From the NCBI GenBank assembly GCA_964632435.1, contig CAZWEJ010000001.1:1052-65051 (forward strand): DNA of 64,000 nt. Direction: 5' to 3'. This document shows positions 13,226-59,856 of this stretch, in pieces; the first letter of the stretch is position 1, and every line of letters begins with the position of its first letter. This DNA comes from an uncultured Candidatus Saccharimonadales bacterium (GTDB lineage: Bacteria > Patescibacteriota > Saccharimonadia > UBA4664 > SCTI01). The notes below the pieces were generated by a model. It made no database searches, was not told where the DNA came from, and saw nothing but the letters and a program-made list of their open reading frames with translations. A program made the position numbers and the translations under genes.

Positions 13226-13252
13226 CTGGCACTCGGCATATTAGAGTGCTAA
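13226..13252 (+). promoter_or_regulatory. CIRCE-like inverted repeat (HrcA operator type) upstream of clpC
   Basis: CTGGCACTC-N9-GAGTGCTAA versus the CIRCE consensus TTAGCACTC-N9-GAGTGCTAA; it overlaps a TAATAT -10-like hexamer. Confidence 0.6.
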
Positions 13253-13320: not shown

Positions 13321-15813
13321 ATGGCACTAGAGTTTGGACCACATTTTGATAGATTCACTGAAAATGCTAAGCAAAGTTTAGAGAATGCCGATCAAATCGC
13401 GACCCAGATGGCGTCAAGTTATATCGGCACTGAGCACATTCTGTTAGGCGTATTGCAACAGGAGGGTTCAATTGGATCCAGAATATTAAGGAATGCTGGA
13501 GTTACTCTCGACAAAGCGCAAATGGTTCTGAGCTTTTCGCCTAAAGTTATCTCTCATAATCACAAGGGGCTCAGCGAAGCTGCCAAGACCACTTTGACCC
13601 TTTCTTGGCGTATTGCTCGCGAGTTTGGTCAACCATACTCGGGCACCGAGCACATTCTTTTCGCTCTCTTAAGCCACAAAAGCGCTCGTTCTAATACATT
13701 ACTAAAAGAGATGCGGGTCGAGCCCTCGCTGGTTCGTTCGGAGCTGGAGAACTACTTAAGCAATCAACAATTCTTCCCAATGGAAGATGATGGCCGAACC
13801 TCTGGTGGAGGTACTGCCACAGCCAAGAAAACTAAGACTAAGACGCCAGCACTCGATAGCTTTGGTGTAGATCTTACTGCGAAAGCTCGCGAAGGATATC
13901 TAGACCCAGTGGTTGGGCGTGAGAACCAAATTGGCCGAGTAATCACTATTCTTAATCGCCGCTCTAAAAATAATCCAGTTCTTATTGGTGAGCCTGGGGT
14001 AGGTAAGACGGCAATTGTAGAAGGTCTTGCTCAAAGAATCGTTTCTGAAGAAGTGCCAGAAATGCTACAAAGTAAGCGTATTATCATGCTCGATCTCGCA
14101 AGCGTAATCGCTGGTACAAAATACCGAGGTGAGTTTGAAGAGCGCTTAAAGAAGCTTCTTGATGAAGCTAAGGCTAATCGCGAAGTAATTCTGTTTATTG
14201 ATGAGCTACATACAGTGGTTGGCGCAGGTGCTGCCGAAGGCGCTATTGATGCAGCCAATATTCTCAAGCCGGCACTAAGCCGAGGCGAAATTCAAGTTGT
14301 CGGCGCAACCACTCTAGATGAATATCGCAAACATATTGAGAAAGATTCGGCTCTTGAGAGAAGGTTCCAGCCAGTTCAGGTTCCGGAGGCAACCGCAGAG
14401 GAGACGGTTCAGGTTCTGCATGGTTTGCGCCCTCGATACGAGGAGCATCATCGGGTTGAAATTACAGATGAGGCAATTGAAAGCGCCGCAAAACTTGCTC
14501 ACAGGTATGTTGCCGATCGATTCCTGCCAGATAAGGCAATCGATCTTGTTGATGAGGCGGCTTCCTTGGTACGAATAAAGAGAGGCGCGACCAGTAAGCC
14601 GCTTCGCTCACTTCAAAGGCAGTTCAATGACATTCAGGCCCAGATTGAAGATGCGGTAAACGACCAAGACTTTGAGGGCGCTGCCCGACTCAAAACAAAG
14701 GCGAGTGTTCTGGAGCAAAAAATTGATGTACTCCGCGAAAAAGAGGGAGATAAAGAAAACCTCAGGATTGTGCCCGAGGATATCGCTCAAGTTATTAGCG
14801 TTATGACTGGCATTCCCGCAACTAGATTAATCGACAAAGAGATGCACAATCTAATGCAGCTAGAAGACCGACTTGGTAAGAGAATTATCGCTCAAAATGA
14901 AGCTGTGGCCGCAATTTCAAAAGCCATTCGTCGAAGCCGCACCGGAATAAGTGATAGTCGCCGGCCTATTGGATCATTCATTTTTCTTGGGCCAACGGGT
15001 GTAGGTAAGACAGAACTGGCTCGTGTATTAAGTGAAGAGATGTTCCACAGCCGCGATGCGATGATCAAAATCGATATGAGTGAGTTTATGGAGAAGCACA
15101 ATGTGGCAAGGCTTGTCGGCGCGCCCGCAGGTTATGTTGGTTATGATGATGGGGGCCAGCTGACAGAGCTTGTTAGAAGAAAGCCTTATAGCCTAATCCT
15201 CTTTGATGAGATTGAGAAAGCTCATCCGGATGTTTTCAATATGCTTTTGCAGATTCTTGAAGATGGGCAGCTCACAGATGCAAAAGGGCGCAAGATTGAT
15301 TTTCGCAATACAATTATTATTATGACCTCAAATGTGGGAGCAGAAACCATGTATAAGGAGGCTCAGCTCGGATTTCAGGCAGATACTCGAGAGGAAGAGA
15401 AGGAGCTTGAACAGCAGCATGAGCGTGTAAAAGGTCAGGTTATGGATTCGCTTAAGCGCACTTTTAGGCCAGAGTTCCTTAACCGTATTGACGACGTAAT
15501 TGTTTTCAAGCCGCTATCCAAACTGGATATTCGACAAATTCTTGACCTGCAGTTGAGTGAGCTCGCTGGAAGAATTGCCGAGCAGGGATTGAATCTGCGA
15601 GTTAGCTCATCAGCAAAAAACTTGCTTATCGAAAAAGGCTATAACGTCGATCAAGGTGCAAGGCCAATGAGAAGAGCAATTCAAGATTTGGTTGAAGACC
15701 CCCTTGCGATTGGTGTTTTGAAACATGAGTACAAAGAAGGTGACACTGTATCCATAACAGCAAAAGATAACGAGCTGGTGCTTAAAGCCTTATCGCCTCA
15801 CGCCAAAAGTTAA
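13321..15813 (+). CDS. clpC: ATP-dependent Clp protease ATP-binding subunit ClpC/ClpB-type (two AAA+ modules, Clp_N repeats)
   Basis: Two Clp N-terminal repeats, Walker A motifs GEPGVGKT and GPTGVGKT, a UVR-like linker and a ClpB_D2-small domain. Confidence 0.9.
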
Positions 15814-28176: not shown

Positions 28177-28203
28177 TTAGCACTCTTGCATGTAGACTGC
28201 TAA
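28177..28203 (+). promoter_or_regulatory. CIRCE-like inverted repeat upstream of clpP
   Basis: TTAGCACTC-N9-GACTGCTAA, 17 of 18 matches to the CIRCE consensus with the canonical 9-nt spacer. Confidence 0.6.
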
Positions 28204-28865: not shown

Positions 28866-28876
28866 CATATAAAACC

Positions 28877-28893
28877 TGTTGACACATCTGTCA
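28877..28893 (+). promoter_or_regulatory. Palindromic TTGACA-N4-TGTCA promoter/operator element upstream of rpoB
   Basis: tgTTGACAcatcTGTCAt; the same element in inverted orientation occurs upstream of rplC at 44156-44172. Confidence 0.4.
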
Positions 28894-28932
28894 TTATCCT
28901 GCAAAATAGGCTCTAAGAGGAAGCTTAAATCA

Positions 28933-28960
28933 AAAGTAGGAGTGGGCCTACTTTGTTTTT
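28933..28960 (+). terminator. Rho-independent terminator after clpP
   Basis: aaagtagg-agtggg-cctacttt stem followed by gttttt. Confidence 0.55.
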
Positions 28961-29126
28961 GCGTGTAGGGCTCCCGTACTTGGATAGCTGGTGCAAGTGC
29001 GAAAGTTCTAGAAGGCAAAACTCATCAATCCACACCTTAAGGATTTAGATAAACCTCTTGATTATTACTCCAGACAGCACTGGGGAAAAGCGCTATATAA
29101 ACTTAATAATCAAGAAGGAGACGGTT

Positions 29127-32643: not shown

Positions 32644-35600
32644 ATGGAGAAGACTTTGGAACATACAGGAACAGAATTTAACGCAGTTCGCCTAAGTCTG
32701 GCGAGCCCAAAGCAAATTCTTGATTGGTCACACGGCGAGATTACTAAGCCAGAAACCATCAACTATCGAACTCAGAAGCCAGAAAAAGACGGTTTGTTCT
32801 GCGAAAGAATCTTTGGACCAACTAAGGACTGGGAGTGCTATTGCGGTAAGTACAAGCGAATCAGATACAAGGATGTTGTTTGTGATAAGTGTGGTGTACG
32901 CGTTACGCGAAGTATTGTTCGACGAGAGCGAATGGGCCACATCAGCCTTGCCGTACCTGTAACTCACATCTGGTTCTTGCGAGGTACTCCAAGTTCAATT
33001 GGATTGGTCCTCAATATGAGCATTCGCGATCTTGAGCGAGTTGCATACTTTGCCAACTACGTTGTTACAGAAGTTGATGACGACCGCCGAAAAGCGGCAA
33101 TAGCTGATTTGGAAGCAGACTATAAGGGCCGAATGAACGACATTGTTAAAGATCACGAAAAGAAGGCTGGCGAGAAAGACGCCGACGTTAAAGAAGTTGC
33201 AGCAGCTCAGACACGTGAACTCAACGACCTTGAGGCTAGTTACGAGAGCGCAAAGAGCGAACTAGAAGGTCTTGCCCGACTTACTCTTTTAACGGAGTCC
33301 AAGTATCGTGACCTGAACCTTAAGTACGGTGATGTATTTAAGGCTGATATTGGCGCAGAAGCCATTCGTAACCTCCTTACCGAGATTGATGTAGATAAGC
33401 TTGTTGAAGAGCTTACAAAGGAAGCCGAAGAGTCGGTTGGGCAGAAGAAAAAGAAGACCCTAAAGAGACTTAAGATGCTTGAAGGTCTAAGAAATGCCGG
33501 AATTCGTCCCGAGTGGATGGTTATGACCGAGCTCCCTGTAATTCCACCAGATCTACGACCAATGGTTCAGCTCGCGGGTGGTCGATTCGCCGCCTCTGAC
33601 CTCAATGACCTTTATCGGCGCGTTATCAACCGAAATAACCGCTTGAAGCGACTTATTGAGCTCGATGCGCCAGAAGTTATTCGCCGAAACGAAAAGCGAA
33701 TGCTCCAGGAGGCAGTCGACGCCTTAATCGATAACAATGCCCGACGTGAGCGCGCAGTCTCCAGCACGGGAACTCGCCGCAAGCTTAAGAGCCTCAGCGA
33801 CATGCTCAAGGGTAAGCAGGGCCGTTTCCGCCAGAACCTCCTTGGAAAGCGCGTTGACTACTCTGGACGATCAGTTATTGTTGCCGGTCCAACTCTAAAG
33901 ATCTACGAATGTGGTCTTCCTAAGATGATGGCTCTTGAGCTGTTCAAGCCATTCGTTATGTCCAAGCTTATCGAAGAGGGTCACGCTCATAACGTTAAGA
34001 GCGCTGGCCGAATGATTGAGCGAGCTCGAACAGAAGTTTGGGACGCACTCGAAGAGATCATTAAGGAAAAGCATGTTCTTCTTAACCGTGCGCCAACCCT
34101 TCACCGACTCGGAATCCAGGCGTTTAAGCCGGTTTTGATCGAAGGTAAGGCAATTCAGCTACATCCGCTCGTATGTTCTGCCTTCAACGCAGACTTCGAT
34201 GGTGACCAGATGGCTGTCCACGTTCCATTAAGCGATGCTGCCCAAAAAGAGGCTCGTGAGATCATGCTTGCATCCCACAACCTATTGAAGCCAGCTGATG
34301 GCGCCGCGGTAGTTAATCCAAGCCAGGATATGGTTCTTGGTTGCTACTACCTAACTTACGATAAGTTTAAAGACGAGAAGCCAGTTAAGAACTTCACTGA
34401 CAAGAATGAGGCAATTTACGCCCTAGATACGGGAGTAATTAACCTTCAGTCTAAGATTACTGTTCCTATTGAAGGTGAACGACTAGAAACAACCGTCGGT
34501 CGAATCCTGTTCAACAATTTGATGCCAGATGAGATTGAGTTCCGAAACGAAACTATGACCAAGAAGAAGCTGCAAGCTCTTGTAGCAGAAATCTTCGTTA
34601 AGTCTGGCCCTGAGGCAACTGCTAAGGTTGTTGATGACATCAAAGACCTTGGGTTCAAGCACGCTACAAACAGTGGTATCTCAATCGGTATCGATGACTT
34701 CATCGTTCCAGGTAACAAGCAGGAGCTCATTGACCAAGGTGAAAACCAGGTCGTTGAGATCAGCCAGCAGTATGAGATGGGCTTGATTACAGAGGATGAG
34801 CGCTACCGAAGAACTATTGAAGCGTGGCAGAAGACCAACGATGAAATTCGATCTGAGCTAGAATCAACTCTTGATGAGGCAACCATTGGATTGTTCGTAG
34901 AGTCAGGCGCTCGCGGTGACCTGAGCCAGGTTAACCAGATCTCCGGTATGTTGGGACTTGTAAACAACCCAACCGGCCGAATCATTGAGTTGCCAGTCCG
35001 CTCAAACTACAAAGAAGGTTTTTCAACTCTCGAGTACTTCAGCTCAACCCACGGTGCAAGAAAGGGTCTAACCGACACTGCTCTTAGAACCGCTGAGTCA
35101 GGCTACCTAACCCGTCGCTTGGTAGACGTTTCGCAAGACGTTATCGTTACCGAACTCGACTGTGGCGACAAAGAAGGTAACCTTATCAACCGAGTTGAAT
35201 CTGCAGCCATGGGTGAGGGCTTTGCCGCTCGACTCGCCGGACGCTTTGCTGCTAAAGACATCAAGGTTGATGGTAAGACAATCGTTAAGGCTCGTAATTT
35301 AATTACTGATGAGATCGCCAATGAGATCGTTGAGAGCTCGGTTGAGGAGGTCTCAGTTCGATCGGTGCTTAAATGTAAGACCCAATGGGGTATCTGCCAG
35401 AAGTGTTACGGTGTTGACCTAGCCCGTGGCCAGATCGTTAAGATGGGTGAACCAGTAGGCGTTATCGCCGCTCAGTCAATCGGTGAGCCAGGAACTCAGC
35501 TAACCATGCGTACCTTCCACAAGGGTGTGGCCGCGACAGGAGCCGACATTACTCAAGGTCTACCTCGAGTTGAAGAAATCTTTGAAGCCCGTTCGCCTAA

Positions 35601-36522
35601 GGGACAGGCAATCCTAGCCGAAGCTGATGGCGTTGTAAGCGTCAAAGAAAGTGGCGGTAAGACGATTATTCGTGTAACCCCTGCCAACTTGAAGATTACT
35701 GAATACGAGCTTGGTGAGAGGATCCCAGAAGTTAAGACCGGCGATAAGGTTCTGCCAGGAGATATCATGGCAGCCGACGGTAAAGGCAAGAAGGCTCTCA
35801 AAGCTAAGGCTGAAGGTACTGTTGAAGTAACCAAGACCAAGATTTTGCTCACCCATGCAGGTGGAGCACATCGAGATCACACGGTTCCTGCTTATCAGGC
35901 AGTTGAGGTCAAGAATGGCGACCTTGTTGTACGAGGTCAGCGTTTAACCGAAGGTTCAATCAACCTTCAAGACATGCTTACTCTTCTTGGGGAAGAGGCA
36001 GTTCAGCGATATATCGTTTCCGAAGTTCAGTCTATCTACGCTTCACAGGGTCAGGCTATTGCTGATAAGCACATCGAGATCATCATTCGACAGATGTTCT
36101 CACGTGTACAGATTGAGGACCCAGGCGACAGCTTGTTTGTAACCGGCGACATCGTCAGTAAGGTAAGCGTCGTTGAAGAAAATGAAGAGCTATCAGCTGC
36201 TGGCAAAAAGCCTGCAACATACGAGCAGCTCTTACTCCCAATCACTAAGATTTCAATCTCGTCAGATTCGTTCCTTAGCGCTGCAAGCTTTCAGGACACC
36301 AGTCGTGTACTGATTGCAGCAGCAATCCGAGGTAAGCTCGATAAGCTCCGCGGCTTGAAGGAGAACGTGATCATCGGTCGATTGATCCCAGTTGGAACCG
36401 GATTTAAAGACGATGATGAGGTGGAAGAGGTTAAAGAGCCGGTAGCCGTCGGTGCAGAGACCGATGCGCAAGCTGGATTATCTAGCAGCGACCCAGATCA
36501 ACAGATTGACGAGAAAGAATAA
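32644..36522 (+). CDS. rpoC: DNA-directed RNA polymerase subunit beta'
   Basis: Zinc-binding CxxC...CxxC N-terminus and the NADFDGD catalytic motif. Confidence 0.95.
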
Positions 36523-39700: not shown

Positions 39701-40033
39701 TTGATTACGCCCTTAGAGGAGTTCGACTGGGAAGAGATTTTTGCCGAGCTGGCTAGAAACCACCTGGTTTCACAAGATCAGGCCATTAGGCTCACATCTT
39801 CCAGGGCTACCTCAACTGGGAAAATCTATACGCTCTGCTGCTTTCATGACGAAAGAACTCCTTCGTTGGTGTTCTGGCCAAACTCGGGGTTCAAGTGCCA
39901 CGGGTGCGGCGAATGCGGGCGCAGCAAGCTGGACTTTCTCGAATGCCTTGGCATTTCCGAAAAAGAGATCGATCTAATGGTCGATTCCATCAACTCAAGG
40001 TCGGTCAATCAAAACCAACTCAGGCTTCTTTGA
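39701..40033 (+). CDS. Stand-alone CHC2-type (DnaG primase-like) zinc-finger protein, 110 aa
   Basis: TTG start with RBS AAAGGAGG. The motif CCFHDERTPSLVF...FKCHGCGECG matches the zf-CHC2 signature (CPFHxExTPSF...FxCFGCGxxG). No TOPRIM domain is attached. Confidence 0.6.
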   Translation: MITPLEEFDWEEIFAELARNHLVSQDQAIRLTSSRATSTGKIYTLCCFHDERTPSLVFWPNSGFKCHGCGECGRSKLDFLECLGISEKEIDLMVDSINSRSVNQNQLRLL

Positions 40034-41763: not shown

Positions 41764-41774
41764 CACTAGAAACT

Positions 41775-41794
41775 GCCCCGAAAGGGGCGTTTTT
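41775..41794 (+). terminator. Rho-independent terminator after rpsJ
   Basis: gcccc-gaaa-ggggc stem followed by gttttt. Confidence 0.7.
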
Positions 41795-41822
41795 AGTATA
41801 AAAGTCGTGTATAATTAACCAC

Positions 41823-42158
41823 ATGGTTAAACGAACAGATTTAAACACAGTTTTTCGATGTATATCCGATCCAACCCGGAGGCACATACTTGAGCATCTC
41901 TCCGAGATGGCGAGGCCGATGAGCGTGTTGGAGCTCGCGGAACCTCACAATATGAGCCTCCCCGCTGTGTCCAAGCATCTTCGCTATCTTGAGAAGGCCG
42001 GGCTTGTGAAAAGGACCGTCAAAGGTCGTGTTCATTCTTTCGAAATTATTCAGGAGCCTCTCAAGATGGCAGAGGCGTGGGTCGTATATTACCTGCAGTG
42101 TTGGAATAAGCAGCTTGATGTTATAGAGAGTACAAAAAAGGAAAGCAGCATCTTCTAA
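41823..42158 (+). CDS. ArsR/SmtB-family winged-helix transcriptional regulator
   Basis: HTH region ...TRRHILEHLSE..MSVLELAEPHNMSLPAVSKHLRYLEKAGLVKR; a TATAAT box lies just upstream. Confidence 0.8.
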   Translation: MVKRTDLNTVFRCISDPTRRHILEHLSEMARPMSVLELAEPHNMSLPAVSKHLRYLEKAGLVKRTVKGRVHSFEIIQEPLKMAEAWVVYYLQCWNKQLDVIESTKKESSIF

Positions 42159-42173
42159 CTTGTTATGGTTGCG

Positions 42174-42196
42174 TTTTGGCCTCGGTAAAGCCAAAA
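42174..42196 (+). promoter_or_regulatory. Perfect 7-bp inverted repeat TTTTGGC-N9-GCCAAAA between the ArsR gene and the downstream cassette (candidate operator)
   Basis: Not followed by a T-run, so it is unlikely to be a terminator. Confidence 0.3.
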
Positions 42197-42222
42197 TGAT
42201 ATCAACAAAGGGGTAGAAGTAG

Positions 42223-42726
42223 ATGGATTTTCAGGAAGCGATCATTTTTGTAAGTGCAGTCATTATTGTTGTGGCTGCTGGGGTTGTCCTTGGTGCGGTT
42301 ATACGGGGCAGGAGCATCAAGCAATCAGAGAAGGTTGGCTTAATTCAACAGCGCAAAGCGGAGTTATATTCGGAAATTATTGGCGCCCTCGACACAATAG
42401 TTGAAGACAATGATCAAAAAAAACAGTGGTTTATCCACCGATACTACCAAGCTCTAGTCTATGCGCCCGACAATGTGATTGCTTCCATTAATAGGTATCT
42501 TGATGGTGTTACAGCAATAGGAGCGGATCTCTCGCCAGACAAGATAATGGAGCTTCGCGGTAAAGCCGTAAGGTCAATGAGAGCAGATATCCAGGGATAC
42601 CTGAATGCTAAAACACGGCTTCCACTCCCTGAACTTTATCGAATAGAGGTTAAGGCGCCAGCACATCCGGCTCTAAAAGAAGATTCGAAAAAGAGTAAAC
42701 AAAAACCCGTTGCTCAGGAAAAATAG
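42223..42726 (+). CDS. Membrane-anchored hypothetical protein (N-terminal TM, about 140-aa soluble domain)
   Basis: TM helix AIIFVSAVIIVVAAGVVLGAVI; RBS AAAGGGG upstream. Confidence 0.5.
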   Translation: MDFQEAIIFVSAVIIVVAAGVVLGAVIRGRSIKQSEKVGLIQQRKAELYSEIIGALDTIVEDNDQKKQWFIHRYYQALVYAPDNVIASINRYLDGVTAIGADLSPDKIMELRGKAVRSMRADIQGYLNAKTRLPLPELYRIEVKAPAHPALKEDSKKSKQKPVAQEK

Positions 42727-42784
42727 TTTGCACCAGGTAAGCTTAAGAGGTATATTCAAATCAAAACCATAAAAAGAGGGAAAA

Positions 42785-42904
42785 ATGGCGGTAAAAAAAT
42801 GCACCAACAAAAACTGTAATGCGAATGTAAAGGTTTGCAAGGACAAAAGCTGTAGCGCTAAAGGCCCACACGGTCATTGTTCAAACGGGCATAAAGTAAA
42901 GTAG
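42785..42904 (+). CDS. 39-aa Cys/His-rich peptide (MAVKKCTNKNCNANVKVCKDKSCSAKGPHGHCSNGHKVK)
   Basis: My own translation; RBS AGAGGG 5 nt upstream; two CxxxxC pairs plus HGHC; below the 60-aa cut-off of the ORF track. Confidence 0.4.
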   Translation: MAVKKCTNKNCNANVKVCKDKSCSAKGPHGHCSNGHKVK

Positions 42905-42911
42905 GCCTCCT

Positions 42912-43373
42912 TTGGAAAAGCGAAAGGTCAAACGACCGGCAGGCTCGACGCGACAACAGATTGTAAAGAGATACAACTCTCGGGCTTGGTATCAGCTGCC
43001 TGATTGGGCTCAACAGTTTGTTGTTAGTGCCGCTCCTTGGTTCACTGGTCTGATCGTGGCTGTCTTGACGCCTGCAGCGGCACTTGCTCTGGTATTAGGG
43101 TTCCACTCGTTACCCCTTGAAATTATTGGGGTACCTGGGACTGAGAATGATTTTGGCTTAGCTGCATTTATTCTATTAGTAAAAGTTGCTCTACTAGCGC
43201 TAGCTCTAAAGCCCCTTTACAGGAGGCAAGCGAGGGGTTGGACTTACTTAATTTTGGCATCATTTGTCCATTTGCTTCACAGTATATGGTTGCAGCACCC
43301 CGTTTCGGGAACACTTATTTGTTTAGGGACTCTATATCTGTATAGCCAGGTACGTCGCTGGTACACGCAGTAG
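42912..43373 (+). CDS. Multi-TM membrane protein, paralog 1 of a tandem pair
   Basis: Shares the YQLP...PW... and GW motifs and overall TM topology with the next gene. Confidence 0.55.
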   Translation: MEKRKVKRPAGSTRQQIVKRYNSRAWYQLPDWAQQFVVSAAPWFTGLIVAVLTPAAALALVLGFHSLPLEIIGVPGTENDFGLAAFILLVKVALLALALKPLYRRQARGWTYLILASFVHLLHSIWLQHPVSGTLICLGTLYLYSQVRRWYTQ

Positions 43374-43430
43374 TCTTGCAGGTAAAAAGCATAAGCGGTA
43401 TACTTCGCTTAAGTAATAGAAGGATGCCAA

Positions 43431-43880
43431 ATGGCCACCTCAAACCCCTTAAATAGTATAGTAAGCTCTCTTGAGCCATATTTCACAACAAAATCGCCCT
43501 ATCAGCTGCCGAAGAACATCAGAGAGTTTTTAGTAAAATACATACCTTGGATTAATGTTGTCATCCTGGTAATACTGGCTCCAGGAATTTTGCTCGCCCT
43601 TGGCATAGGAACTGCAACTCTACCATTTAGTGGAATTGCAGGCGTCGACTCCGCAACAGGGTTAACCATCACCCTCCTTGCGCTTGTAATACAAGTTGTA
43701 TTGATGATCGCAGCGCTACCTGGTTTGTTCAACCGTAAAATCAGTGGTTGGAATCTTTCATTTTATGCTGTCATATTCAATCTTGCTTATAGCCTACTCA
43801 ATTTCCAGATTCTAAGTGGGCTTCTTGGGGCTTTGATCGGAGCTTACGTTCTATTCCAGATAAAGTCTTATTACAAATAG
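43431..43880 (+). CDS. Multi-TM membrane protein, paralog 2 of a tandem pair
   Basis: Clear collinear similarity to 42912-43373 (YQLP, PW, LP..I.GV, GW, N...N.Q.LSG). Confidence 0.55.
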   Translation: MATSNPLNSIVSSLEPYFTTKSPYQLPKNIREFLVKYIPWINVVILVILAPGILLALGIGTATLPFSGIAGVDSATGLTITLLALVIQVVLMIAALPGLFNRKISGWNLSFYAVIFNLAYSLLNFQILSGLLGALIGAYVLFQIKSYYK

Positions 43881-43884
43881 CCTA

Positions 43885-44130
43885 ATGGCCAAGAAAAACG
43901 CTACAACCGAATATGATAGTGTTTATTTCTTAAAAATTTTAATCTATCTGATTCTTGGAACAGTTTGGCTCTCAAATGGAGAAAGTCGAACCCTGCCAGT
44001 AGGCTTAATAGTGGGTATTGTGGCTGTTCAGCACGAAAAATTACAAATTGACCGAAAAATTGAGTACGCACTATTACTAATTGGAACTATTTTAGGCCTG
44101 GTAGGCATTGGTTTAACAATAAATTTGTAG
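43885..44130 (+). CDS. Small 2-TM membrane protein
   Basis: Two hydrophobic helices; tightly spaced after the paralog pair. Confidence 0.45.
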   Translation: MAKKNATTEYDSVYFLKILIYLILGTVWLSNGESRTLPVGLIVGIVAVQHEKLQIDRKIEYALLLIGTILGLVGIGLTINL

Positions 44131-44155
44131 CCGCAACATAATCAATTTCTCTATC

Positions 44156-44172
44156 TGTTGACAGATGTGTCA
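44156..44172 (+). promoter_or_regulatory. Promoter for rplC and downstream genes, with a palindromic TTGACA-gatg-TGTCAA element overlapping the -35
   Basis: TTGACA -35, 17-bp spacer, TTATAT -10; the palindrome is the reverse complement of the element at 28877-28893. Confidence 0.45.
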
Positions 44173-44299
44173 AAACTCTGTTATATTTACTTGGTAACTT
44201 TTGCTCAATTTAGAGCTTAGAACTAGGAGTTGATCTGGTCCGTGAGCCGCGGATACCGCTCGAATCCTAGAATTTGTTTTGTTTAATATAAGGAGTGGC

Positions 44300-44938
44300 A
44301 TGAAAGCCTTGCTCGGCCGAAAACTTGGAATGACCCAGCTGTTTGACGACAACGGCAATGTTGCGCGTGTCACTATAGTAGAGGCAGGCCCTTGCGTGGT
44401 TACTCAAGTGCGAACTGGCGAAAACGACGGCTACCAAGCTGTACAAATTGGCTTTGGTAAGCACAAAAACGCTAGCAAGCCGCAGGAAGGCCACGCTACA
44501 TTTGATGGCGTAACTCCTCGTCATATCAAAGAAGTTCGTATGGACGATACCGTTGTAAATGTAGAAGAAGTTGAAGGCGACAACAAGCTCAAGGTTGGCG
44601 ACAAGCTGGATGTCAGTATTTTTGAAGTTGGAGACAAGATCCAGGTAACTGGTACTAGTAAAGGTAAGGGGTTTGCAGGAACTGTAAAGCGTCACAACTT
44701 CAACACTGGTCCAAAAACACACGGTTCACATAATTATCGTCAACCAGGTTCAATTGGTTCAGGATACCCACAGCACGTATTCAAGGGAATTAAGATGGCC
44801 GGTCGAATGGGTGGCGAGAAGGTTACTACAAAGGGGCTCAAGATTGTCTCAGTTGATGCCGAGAACAACCTGATCGCTATAAAGGGCGCAGTTCCTGGGC
44901 CGCGTAAGTCAATCGTTATGATCCGAGGCGCGAAGTAA
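44300..44938 (+). CDS. rplC: 50S ribosomal protein L3
   Basis: ATG at 44300 after AAGGAG; MKALLGRKLGMTQLFDDNGNV... Confidence 0.95.
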   Translation: MKALLGRKLGMTQLFDDNGNVARVTIVEAGPCVVTQVRTGENDGYQAVQIGFGKHKNASKPQEGHATFDGVTPRHIKEVRMDDTVVNVEEVEGDNKLKVGDKLDVSIFEVGDKIQVTGTSKGKGFAGTVKRHNFNTGPKTHGSHNYRQPGSIGSGYPQHVFKGIKMAGRMGGEKVTTKGLKIVSVDAENNLIAIKGAVPGPRKSIVMIRGAK

Positions 44939-53958: not shown

Positions 53959-54028
53959 TGCAAATTTTACGCAAAAACTCCTTTACAGATCTGAAAAAAA
54001 TCTGTATTATATCTACTTGTAGCTCATT

Positions 54029-54253
54029 ATGTCAGATACAAAGGAAGTAATCGAACTATCCGGAACCGTTCTGGAGACCCTCCCAAACGCAATGTTTAGG
54101 GTTGAGCTCGAGAACGGTCACGTTATTTTAGCCCATATCTCTGGGAAAATGCGTATGCACTATATTCGCATATTGCCTGGAGACAAGGTGACTGTTCAAA
54201 TGACCCCATATGATCTGACAAAAGGCCGAATTACTTATCGGCATAGAGATTAA
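54029..54253 (+). CDS. infA: Translation initiation factor IF-1
   Basis: S1-like fold; conserved IF-1 sequence. Confidence 0.95.
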
Positions 54254-58134: not shown

Positions 58135-58419
58135 CTCGACCTAAGACATTAATAAAATTAATAGCTTGGGTTGAGTGACAAAGTGAGTGAGATGCAGGTG
58201 GGTGAGGCACGCTAGATGCCTCACCCTCCCTTTCCGCTAGATACCTGCATTCGGAAAAGCTGCTCCATCGGTAAAGATGCGTAGTGAATCCGACCACGCT
58301 ACGCGCCCGATTGGCGGCACATAGGCCGCGCTAAAGCTGGAGAGCCTTGAAGTTTTACGGGGCAACCTCCGTGTCGCCCCGATTTGTCCCCCCCGTGCCA
58401 TTCTTGGCGCGAGCTTGTT

Positions 58420-59694
58420 TTACTTCTTGGTCTTCGAACGCCGACGAGCGCCCTTGGTTCCGGAGCGCTCACCCTTGGCGTTAACGCCCACGTTGCCGCG
58501 ACGGTTACGCCTCGGGTCGTCCGGACCCTGCGGGTTAGCCTTACCGATCCTGGGGCCGGCTCCAGGAATCTTCGGGGTGTTAGGCTCCTTCGACTTCTTG
58601 GCGGCCTTGGAGCCACCAGCCTTTCCGCGGTTGCGCTGATCGACCTGCTTGACCCGATTACTGCTTGCGCGAGCATCGCGGTCGAGCTTGCTCAGAACCA
58701 TCATGAGCTTGCTGTCCAGCTTGAGGTTCCCCCTCAGAATGCGCAGCGCATGGTGAATATCACGAACGTTCTGTCGGGTCTTCAGGATCTCCTCCGCCAG
58801 ATTCTCAATCGGCTGAGTCATCAGCATCATGAGGTACGAGCCGGGGTCGATCTCCTTGATCCCCTCGCTGAAGGCGTTGATCCGCCTCTGGCGAGTGGCT
58901 TCGATCTCCGAGATCATCTCGGAGATCTTCTGCTGAGCCGCCGCCCTCTTGCTGAGGCTCTGAAGAGCGATGATCATCGAGGCGTTGGGCCGAAGCTGCG
59001 CCTTCATGATCCGCACGGCGTTCAGCTCGCCGTAGACCGAGTTGCCCTCCTTCAGAAGCGTCTCGATGAGCTTATCGAGAGGCTCATTGAAGATCCGATG
59101 GAGGTACGTGCCCTCATCGATCAGATGGAGGTCATCCATGAACTCCTCCCGAAGGGTATCGATGCGACGCTGGAGGGCGGCCTTCTCGGACTCAGCCTTG
59201 GTGGTACCCTCATCGCACAGGCGCTTCAGCGTCTGCATGAAGTCGCTCTCATCCTCGAGCTGCTTCATAACCCCCAACATCGCTTCGGTGACCGTAATGC
59301 CACGCCTTCTGGCGTCGTACGTTGCGGTCTGCATGAGGGGGAAGTGGATCAGGTGGTAGAGCCGGGTGTCCTGCTTGATCAGACTCACGCCGTTGCCGTA
59401 CTTGGCAATCGCGTCCGTCTTGAGACGCTCGGCTTTCGCCGAGACCTCGTTGAGATCAACGCTGTCGCCCTCGACGTAGCCGGTCGAGAGATCCTCGACG
59501 CGGTGACGCCTGGGAGCGCTACCAGTAGTCGAGCGCTTGGGGCGACTCTTCCGCCCCTTCTGCCTGCGAGGCCGACGCGACCTGATCGCCTGCCCGAAAG
59601 CAGACATCAGTTCGTCGGTTGTCGCGACCCGATCGTCGGCCGGGGCCGGATCGGAGGTCTCCCCCTGGGGATTGACCTGGGGCGAAATCGCCAT
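58420..59694 (-). CDS. GC-rich foreign-looking gene: 424-aa protein with an internally duplicated helical domain and strongly basic Arg/Lys-rich N- and C-terminal tails (candidate nucleic-acid-binding protein)
   Basis: Minus-strand ORF with protein-like composition, whereas the plus-strand antisense ORF is L/R/G-rich. The start at 59694 is preferred because of the RBS GAGGTGA 4 nt upstream. Internal repeat: LIDEGTYLHRIFNEPLDKLIETLLK versus EIDPGSYLMMLMTQPIENLAEEILK. Local GC is about 60% against about 46% for the flanks. Confidence 0.55.
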   Translation of the reverse strand: MAISPQVNPQGETSDPAPADDRVATTDELMSAFGQAIRSRRPRRQKGRKSRPKRSTTGSAPRRHRVEDLSTGYVEGDSVDLNEVSAKAERLKTDAIAKYGNGVSLIKQDTRLYHLIHFPLMQTATYDARRRGITVTEAMLGVMKQLEDESDFMQTLKRLCDEGTTKAESEKAALQRRIDTLREEFMDDLHLIDEGTYLHRIFNEPLDKLIETLLKEGNSVYGELNAVRIMKAQLRPNASMIIALQSLSKRAAAQQKISEMISEIEATRQRRINAFSEGIKEIDPGSYLMMLMTQPIENLAEEILKTRQNVRDIHHALRILRGNLKLDSKLMMVLSKLDRDARASSNRVKQVDQRNRGKAGGSKAAKKSKEPNTPKIPGAGPRIGKANPQGPDDPRRNRRGNVGVNAKGERSGTKGARRRSKTKK

Positions 59695-59856
59695 GTTATC
59701 ACCTCGTTTGGGAAGAGCCATAACTTCTGACTCACTTTGTCAAAAAAACATCCGGATTGTTGCACCCGGAAGTTGCGCCAATATTAACATAACTATCTTT
59801 ATCTGTCAACCACCTTACGTCTGGCCACTAAAACATAACCGCTATATAATAATTTT

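Follow-up and report, generated by a model that had tools for sequence, protein, structure and literature searches.

Comparison of orthologous promoters supports a clade-specific candidate operator at the rpoB promoter of a family of Saccharimonadia, together with a recently gained perfect copy at the rplC promoter of a single species. That species is represented here by the window, a 64,000-nt stretch of contig CAZWEJ010000001.1 (GCA_964632435.1) from an uncultured Candidatus Saccharimonadales bacterium. A preliminary description of this DNA had proposed that a palindrome found at both promoters is the operator of a dimeric regulator acting on both operons. The part that stood concerns rpoB, where the second half of the repeat is conserved beyond the need of a -35 element. 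A conserved device shared by the two operons is unsupported, because the rplC half-site occurs only in the window species while the promoter boxes and the leader are conserved in its relatives.

To follow the two elements across relatives (those of the window's EF-G and S12 are labelled Saccharimonadia or Saccharibacteria), we located related loci by exact-protein look-ups through S12 and EF-G homologues, with the exception of one locus (L001) that came from a genome scan; about 20 kb was available for each. The set comprises strains identical to the window (L081 and L084–L088), two congeners of the window species (L082, 83% nucleotide identity; L083, 82%) and farther lineages (L091/L093, L092, L098, L104, L106, L096 and L095) at 70–77% nucleotide identity. 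L082, L091, L104 and L106 correspond to the assemblies GCA_964423965.1, GCA_004297735.1, GCA_046597065.1 and GCA_964594805.1, and L092, L093, L096 and L098 to JGI/ENA contigs. The window's RpoC is at most 71% identical to that of any species representative. Eight lineages, with 11 distinct promoter sequences, entered the rpoB comparison, and nine lineages entered the rplC comparison. Nucleotide identity among the eight rpoB lineages is 70–83%, even over highly conserved genes.

Two promoters and an inverted repeat

The genes around the first site are ordered tig-clpP-rpoB-rpoC-rpsL-rpsG-fusA-(zinc-ribbon ORF)-tuf-rpsJ. Site 1 begins 13 nt past the clpP stop codon and lies about 250 nt before the TTG start of rpoB (29127). 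Site 2 is flanked by an 81-aa ORF and the rplC ATG (44300), beyond a 2.5-kb insert in the rpsJ–rplC gap that encodes an ArsR-like helix-turn-helix (HTH) protein and several proteins without a Pfam match. The coordinates of all features are collected in Table 1.

Table 1. Promoter, leader and gene features at the rpoB and rplC loci, in window coordinates.
Feature	Position	Strand	Conservation or basis
A-rich UP-like tract (TAAAA) and invariant G just 5' of the rpoB -35	28866–28878	+	TAAAA(n3)G in all rpoB promoters compared
-35 of the rpoB-rpoC operon, TTGACA, the left arm of the dyad	28879–28884	+	Invariant in 11 sequences, 8 lineages
Candidate operator, 5-4-5 repeat TGACA-catc-TGTCA, overlapping the -35 and upstream spacer, centre near -27.5	28880–28893		
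Right half-site TGTCA, conserved block in the rpoB spacer, about -25 to -21	28889–28893		
rpoB -10 hexamer CAAAAT, 17-bp spacer	28902–28907	+	nAnnAT in all lineages
rpoB structured 5' leader, about 215 nt	28914–29126	+	Closing helix, terminator-like hairpin and T-run (28933–28960), covarying stem
rpoB, TTG start, 1171 aa	29127–32642	+	Pfam RNA_pol_Rpb2 domains; 1171-aa calls in identical contigs
rpoC, after rpoB	32644–36522		
-35 of rplC (S10-spc-alpha cluster), TTGACA	44158–44163	+	Invariant in 9 lineages
Perfect 6-4-6 palindrome TTGACA-gatg-TGTCAA, species-specific look-alike of the rpoB dyad	44158–44173		
rplC extended -10, TGtTATATT, 18-bp spacer	44179–44187	+	TGaTATAGT or TGnTATATT in all relatives
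rplC 5' leader, attenuator-like	44193–44299	+	Long hairpin CTAGG...CCTAG (44223–44270), then U-run and Shine-Dalgarno
rplC (L3, 212 aa), first gene of the long ribosomal-protein cluster	44300–44938	+	Pfam Ribosomal_L3; identical contigs

Judged by their sequence, both elements are core sigma70-type promoters, and the left half of each "palindrome" is simply the -35 hexamer. In a promoter scan, the top-scoring -35/-10 pairs between 26 and 45 kb were the rpoB site (TTGACA-17-CAAAAT, 10 of 12 matches, within ctgTTGACAcatcTGTCAttatcctgCAAAAT at 28876–28907) and the rplC site (TTGACA-18-TATATT with an extended TG, 11 of 12 matches and the best of the region, within ctgTTGACAgatgTGTCAAaactctgtTATATT at 44155–44187). 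Each occupies the intergenic gap directly 5' of its gene, and the hexamers and their spacing are kept at the orthologous positions in all eight rpoB lineages and all nine rplC lineages. The initial proposal that the elements contain a consensus -35 hexamer inside real promoters is thus borne out, with boxes and leaders kept in every related genome recovered. The rpoB -10 varies across lineages (CAAAAT, CAGAAT, CACAAT, AATAAT, TAGAAT, CATAAT and TAGTAT), and the extended -35 sequence GTTGACA is present at the rplC promoters too. We place the probable transcription starts where leader conservation begins, near 28914 and 44194. As the main promoters of these operons, one drives rpoB-rpoC and probably also rpsL-rpsG-fusA, and the other rplC with the long ribosomal-protein cluster.

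A further likely promoter, that of infA (54000–54040, TTTACAgatctgaaaaaaatctgTATTAT), has GATCTG directly after its -35. The corresponding spacer starts are CATCTG at rpoB and GATGTG at rplC, which may reflect a weak shared preference or a coincidence.

The 16-mer at site 1 is TTGACAcatcTGTCAt (28879–28894; site text ctgTTGACAcatcTGTCAt) and consists of TTGACA (28879–28884), CATC (28885–28888) and TGTCAT (28889–28894). The preliminary description had set it at 28877–28893, where the sequence is indeed present, in a span that takes in two bases 5' of the hexamer and ends one base early. The 16-mer at site 2 is TTGACAgatgTGTCAA (44158–44173; site text ctgTTGACAgatgTGTCAAaa). The reverse complement of site 1, TGACAGATGTGTCAA, equals positions 44159–44173 exactly over 15 bases, as had been reported. 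Both copies had also been described as 6-4-6 palindromes; site 2 is a perfect one, but site 1 is merely 5-4-5 because its outer pair, T/T, is mismatched. The "opposite orientations" ascribed to the two sites carry no real meaning, because the element is palindromic and its sole orienting part, the N4 centre (CATC or GATG), is unconserved between lineages at rpoB. Without reversing either site, 16 of 19 positions are identical between them (CTGTTGACA-sATs-TGTCA-w). In the dyad TGACA-N4-TGTCA the half-site centres lie 9 bp apart, a spacing of about one helical turn, as expected for a dimer operator.

We compared the frequency of the motif in the window with expectation. With up to one mismatch, TTGACANNNNTGTCAA has 2 matches against 0.17 expected, a count reached in 1 of 100 shuffles, and the exact core TGACA-N4-TGTCA (TGACANNNNTGTCA) has 2 against 0.03 expected, a count reached in none of 100 shuffles. 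The core with one mismatch allowed is not enriched (3 matches against 1.66 expected), and TTGACA itself occurs only 13 times on both strands. Across 438 kb (the window plus close loci), the exact dyad is found solely at rpoB promoters and at the rplC promoter of the window strain, with no third copy, and the motif has no match in 80 distant loci.

Fate of the right half-site at rpoB and at rplC

Apart from changes in N4, both congeners and L091, L092, L093, L098 and L106 have this dyad at rpoB too (Table 2), so that the right half TGTCA stands in five of the eight lineages (the window genus, L091/L093, L092, L098 and L106). In the remaining three it is degenerate, reading TGACA (L104), TTACA (L096) or AGACA (L001), and its CA is invariant throughout.

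Table 2. The rpoB promoter from the -35 hexamer onward (-35, centre, right half, following bases) and the right half at the rplC promoter, by genome.
Genome	rpoB promoter	rplC right half	Remark
Window	TTGACA catc TGTCAT tatcctg	TGTCAA	
L082	TTGACA catc TGTCAT tatcctg	CACTAA	
L083	TTGACA catc TGTCAT aatcctg	TACTAT	
L091	TTGACA atcc TGTCAT aaatcgg	ATGGTT	
L093	TTGACA atac TGTCAT aaatcgg	GGGCTG	
L092	TTGACA atct TGTCAG aaacggt	GGTGGA	
L098	TTGACA atag TGTCAA acatctg		Perfect TTGACAatagTGTCAA at rpoB
L106	TTGACA aacc TGTCAC gtgcagg		
L104	TTGACA cacc TGACAA ataactc	TCGGTT	
L096	TTGACA caac TTACAT agccccg	GTCTAC	
L001	TTGACA ggtt AGACAA gggtagt		
L095		GGCTCC	

Measured as information per position over the eight lineages, conservation is highest at five of the 17 spacer positions, 5–9. 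The N4 centre and the other eight spacer positions have freely diverged, and all score below these five; among them is the sixth base required by a 6-4-6 palindrome. A random scatter of conservation over the spacer would pick exactly these five positions 1 time in 6188. That the block is only 5 bp, compared across eight lineages, weighs against the operator reading. Among 53 TTGAC[AT] sites 5' of rpoB in 38 distant Patescibacteria and Chloroflexota loci, none has TGTCA at the matching position. The rpoB pattern, with arms kept and centre variable, behaves like that expected of an operator half-site. The right half is nevertheless dispensable, because the three lineages in which it is degenerate keep both promoter and leader.

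At rplC the history is different. TGTCAA is present in one of nine lineages, the window species, and the two congeners and six other lineages have unrelated sequence in its place, while the -35, the extended -10 and the leader are nearly invariant despite this free right half. The three congeneric species are roughly equidistant (83, 82 and 81%), and L082 and L083 have ACTA in common; it is therefore the window lineage that changed, gaining TGTCAA recently. L083 already has the GATG centre but no palindrome, and thus the 15-base reverse-complement match is not a copied cassette. Since the gain is recent and confined to the window species, and the spacer is free in all relatives, the rplC site falls outside any conserved regulon. 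Of the two palindromes, then, the perfect one is the unconserved one, and symmetry at a single locus is insufficient as a guide.

A candidate operator and competing readings

The likeliest reading, to which we give about even odds, is that the dyad on the rpoB promoter is the operator of a dimeric DNA-binding protein that represses by occlusion. A dimeric regulator would bind TGACA-N4-TGTCA across the -35 and upstream spacer, with its centre near -27.5, where it would contend with sigma region 4 for the site, exclude RNA polymerase and so repress the rpoB promoter. An activator is not obviously needed there, because the -35 is consensus and the spacer is 17 bp. If such a regulator exists, the perfect rplC site would also be bound in the window species, as a lineage-specific gain and not a conserved design. 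We infer both the binding and the repression from the pattern of conservation.

This would be a fresh instance of a familiar element type. CIRCE, the HrcA-type operator, has the form TTAGCACTC-N9-GAGTGCTAA, and two repeats of this type occur in the window: TTAGCACTC-N9-GAcTGCTAA at 28177–28203, which straddles the clpP -35, and cTGGCACTC-N9-GAGTGCTAA at 13226–13252, positioned 5' of a ClpB/ClpC-like gene (13321–15813). The clpP repeat is kept in the nine related lineages checked; its arms have diverged in L091, where the strict pattern fails. This clade therefore does use classical repression from an operator placed on the promoter. Used as a positive control, the clpP repeat shows conserved arms and a partly free centre, and the rpoB dyad leaves the same footprint, more weakly. 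The two are alike as inverted repeats placed on a -35, with arms kept and occlusion by a dimer implied. They differ in sequence and in geometry (9-9-9 against 5-4-5), in that the -35 hexamer doubles as one arm of the rpoB dyad, and in that the regulator and regulon of CIRCE are known whereas the dyad has essentially one conserved target. The dyad sites bear no resemblance to TTAGCACTC-N9-GAGTGCTAA, and we rejected them as CIRCE/HrcA operators. As an observation in its own right, the pair of CIRCE repeats at Clp genes implies HrcA control of these genes.

Other known sites provide looser parallels. The FNR box is TTGAT-N4-ATCAA, and the box of the TetR-family protein RutR is TTGACCAnnTGGTCAA. 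The dyad resembles the former in its 5-4-5 geometry, with 9 bp between half-site centres, and the latter in its outer TTGAC...GTCAA, 6 nt apart. It differs from these sites in the bases of its half-sites and, centred near -27.5, from the usual placing of FNR and CRP activators at -41.5 or farther upstream. We saw neither a CRP/FNR nor a TetR gene among those of the window, and we treat the resemblance as a lead only. A Pho-box-like direct repeat at site 1 (CTGTCAT-N4-CTGCAAA) was discarded, its second repeat being unconserved in relatives.

A search for the cognate regulator found none. The Pfam scan of window proteins gave a single HTH gene, the ArsR-like one (41823–42158), and no other DNA-binding regulator domain among the remaining window proteins. 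The ArsR-like protein, which is closest to structural-genomics ArsR proteins, was rejected as the regulator: the gene is confined to the window genus whereas the rpoB dyad is far wider, the congeners that carry it are without the rplC site, and its own promoter lacks a TGACA/TGTCA dyad. No further sites, whether at regulon members or at an autoregulated regulator gene, were found in any locus within the 438 kb, and literature searches on TGACA/TGTCA operators and Saccharibacteria promoters turned up no regulator of this dyad and nothing else of relevance. A separate feature of the ArsR-like gene is a TATAAT (41806–41811) about 11 nt 5' of its ATG at 41823, without a Shine-Dalgarno sequence, and the gene apparently has little or no 5' leader (41800–41825).

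The sites could instead be two ordinary strong promoters whose right halves match by chance, with the conservation at rpoB reflecting phylogenetic inertia in a small sample. This would be in keeping with a match that involves just 5 bp, is lost at rpoB in three of eight lineages and has its rplC half missing from all relatives, with the failure to find a regulator or other sites, and with the lack of enrichment of the one-mismatch core. Yet the lineages are 70–77% identical even in coding DNA, and neighbouring spacer positions are effectively randomised, yet the five best-conserved ones are those of TGTCA, just where the dyad would place them; its absence from the comparable sites of distant relatives and the excess of exact dyads in the window also speak against chance. 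We regard this explanation as unlikely, and it keeps a share of the probability given the small sample and the decay of the half-site in three lineages. The arrangement originally put forward, a conserved operator through which one dimeric regulator coordinates RNA-polymerase and ribosomal-protein synthesis, seems improbable: two congeners at 82–83% identity and six further lineages lack the rplC half-site, and co-regulation is therefore at best a single-species novelty, while the argument from "opposite orientation" depends on the unconstrained N4. In its favour, the exact core stands at both promoters of the window species, with a perfect 6-4-6 at rplC, any protein that binds the rpoB dyad should bind that rplC site too, and there is only about a 1% chance that one of nine free-running rplC spacers gives TGTCA at this position.

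Two further readings assign the right half a role of another kind. On the bottom strand it could be a reverse -35 element, (A/T)TGACA, belonging to a divergent antisense promoter into clpP or to a decoy by which excess holoenzyme would shut off rpoBC. Read on that strand, site 1 gives ATGACA, whereas both site 2 and L098 give TTGACA, and in most lineages a TA dinucleotide lies 17 bp beyond (TATATG, TATACA, TAGATA), but this TA derives from the conserved A-tract of the forward promoter, and the bottom-strand -10 mostly lacks the essential final T (TATCAG, TAGAGG, TGACTG, TAGCAA). The sixth base is also unconserved (T, G, A or C), and we know of no documented mechanism of this kind. We set the bottom-strand promoter or decoy aside for its poor and unconserved -10, and judge the reading very improbable. 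It is barely credible that the dyad acts as RNA, forming a hairpin at which transcripts reading through from clpP would be terminated or processed. Both hairpins have little stability (-3.7 and -5.5 kcal/mol, z about -1.6) and lack a U-run, and there is no covariation, with L104 (TGACA) and L096 (TTACA) breaking the pairing instead of compensating. L001 retains the promoter without clpP upstream, and a true terminator-like hairpin sits downstream, at 28933–28960. What recommends the idea is that clpP ends 13 nt 5' of the -35 with no terminator in between, so that read-through RNA would include the repeat; as an intrinsic clpP terminator, a hairpin of -3.7 kcal/mol with no U-run was rejected.

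Returning to the operator on the rpoB promoter, its broadest form would be a dedicated repressor that controls the RNA-polymerase core operon in one ultra-small Saccharimonadia family, and whose operator the main ribosomal-protein operon of the window species has newly acquired in its promoter. We hold this to be doubtful. If true, it would let one observe how control by a transcription factor extends from the transcription to the translation machinery, perhaps as a growth or dormancy switch of an epibiont. Known control of rpoBC in bacteria is mostly by attenuation and translational feedback. To our knowledge, direct transcription-factor control of an rpoBC promoter is unusual across bacteria, and almost nothing is known of transcriptional regulation in Patescibacteria/CPR bacteria. 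The conserved dyad on the rpoB -35 is a short, concrete target for experimental testing.

Structured leaders and genomic surroundings

The regulatory feature common to both operons across the family is their structured leaders, not the dyad. The devices shared by these leaders are terminator-like hairpins, to which the rpoB leader adds sequestration of the Shine-Dalgarno sequence. The closing helix of the rpoB leader is formed by AAGAGG/CCUCUU together with CUUAAAUC/GAUUUAG, and its CCUCUUGAUUAUU segment can alternatively pair with the Shine-Dalgarno region AAUAAUCAAGAAGG; the partner of CCUCUU would be either the 5' AAGAGG or the Shine-Dalgarno region. In this structure, pairing holds in 92.6% of cells, with compensatory change at 8 pairs, values reached by 0–1 of 500 shuffles. 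The rplC leader is kept in nine lineages, with compensatory change in 6 of 14 predicted pairs. Neither leader has an Rfam match, even at E≤1. Matches to a covariance model of the rpoB leader are limited to this Saccharimonadia family; run against the 80 distant loci, it gave one marginal match, in L001, and added no promoters.

In E. coli, rplKAJL-rpoBC has an attenuator, and the S10-operon leader is controlled by L4. The likeness lies in control within transcribed leaders that contain terminator-like hairpins, and here both leaders are conserved and covarying. The leader sequences are unrelated to those of E. coli; in this family rpoB has its own promoter 3' of clpP, and rplC is split from rpsJ. 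The window's leaders are also separate from the DNA dyad. The rpoB leader is possibly an undescribed cis-regulatory RNA for autoregulation of RNA polymerase, and the rplC leader resembles an attenuator of the S10/L4 type.

The S10 operon is split family-wide by a variable island of 2.5–6.5 kb between rpsJ and rplC (41764–44299 in the window; also in L091–L096, L104 and L106). The island encodes proteins of about 142–168 aa of unknown function and, in most lineages, DUF308 and RarA/MgsA ATPase proteins. In most cases an ORF of 80–84 aa lies just 5' of rplC, and other genes follow this ORF in L091, L095, L096 and L106. Between fusA and tuf, positions 39701–40033 hold a 110-aa ORF whose product has a DnaG-type CHC2 zinc ribbon; the ORF is present in L082 and in L106 (132 aa) and was not called in most other relatives. 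Farther downstream, a GC island at 58200–59750 (about 60% GC, against 42–50% around it) is possibly foreign DNA; it carries a 433-aa minus-strand ORF, strongly basic at its termini and without a Pfam match, which has a 448-aa mirror ORF on the plus strand.
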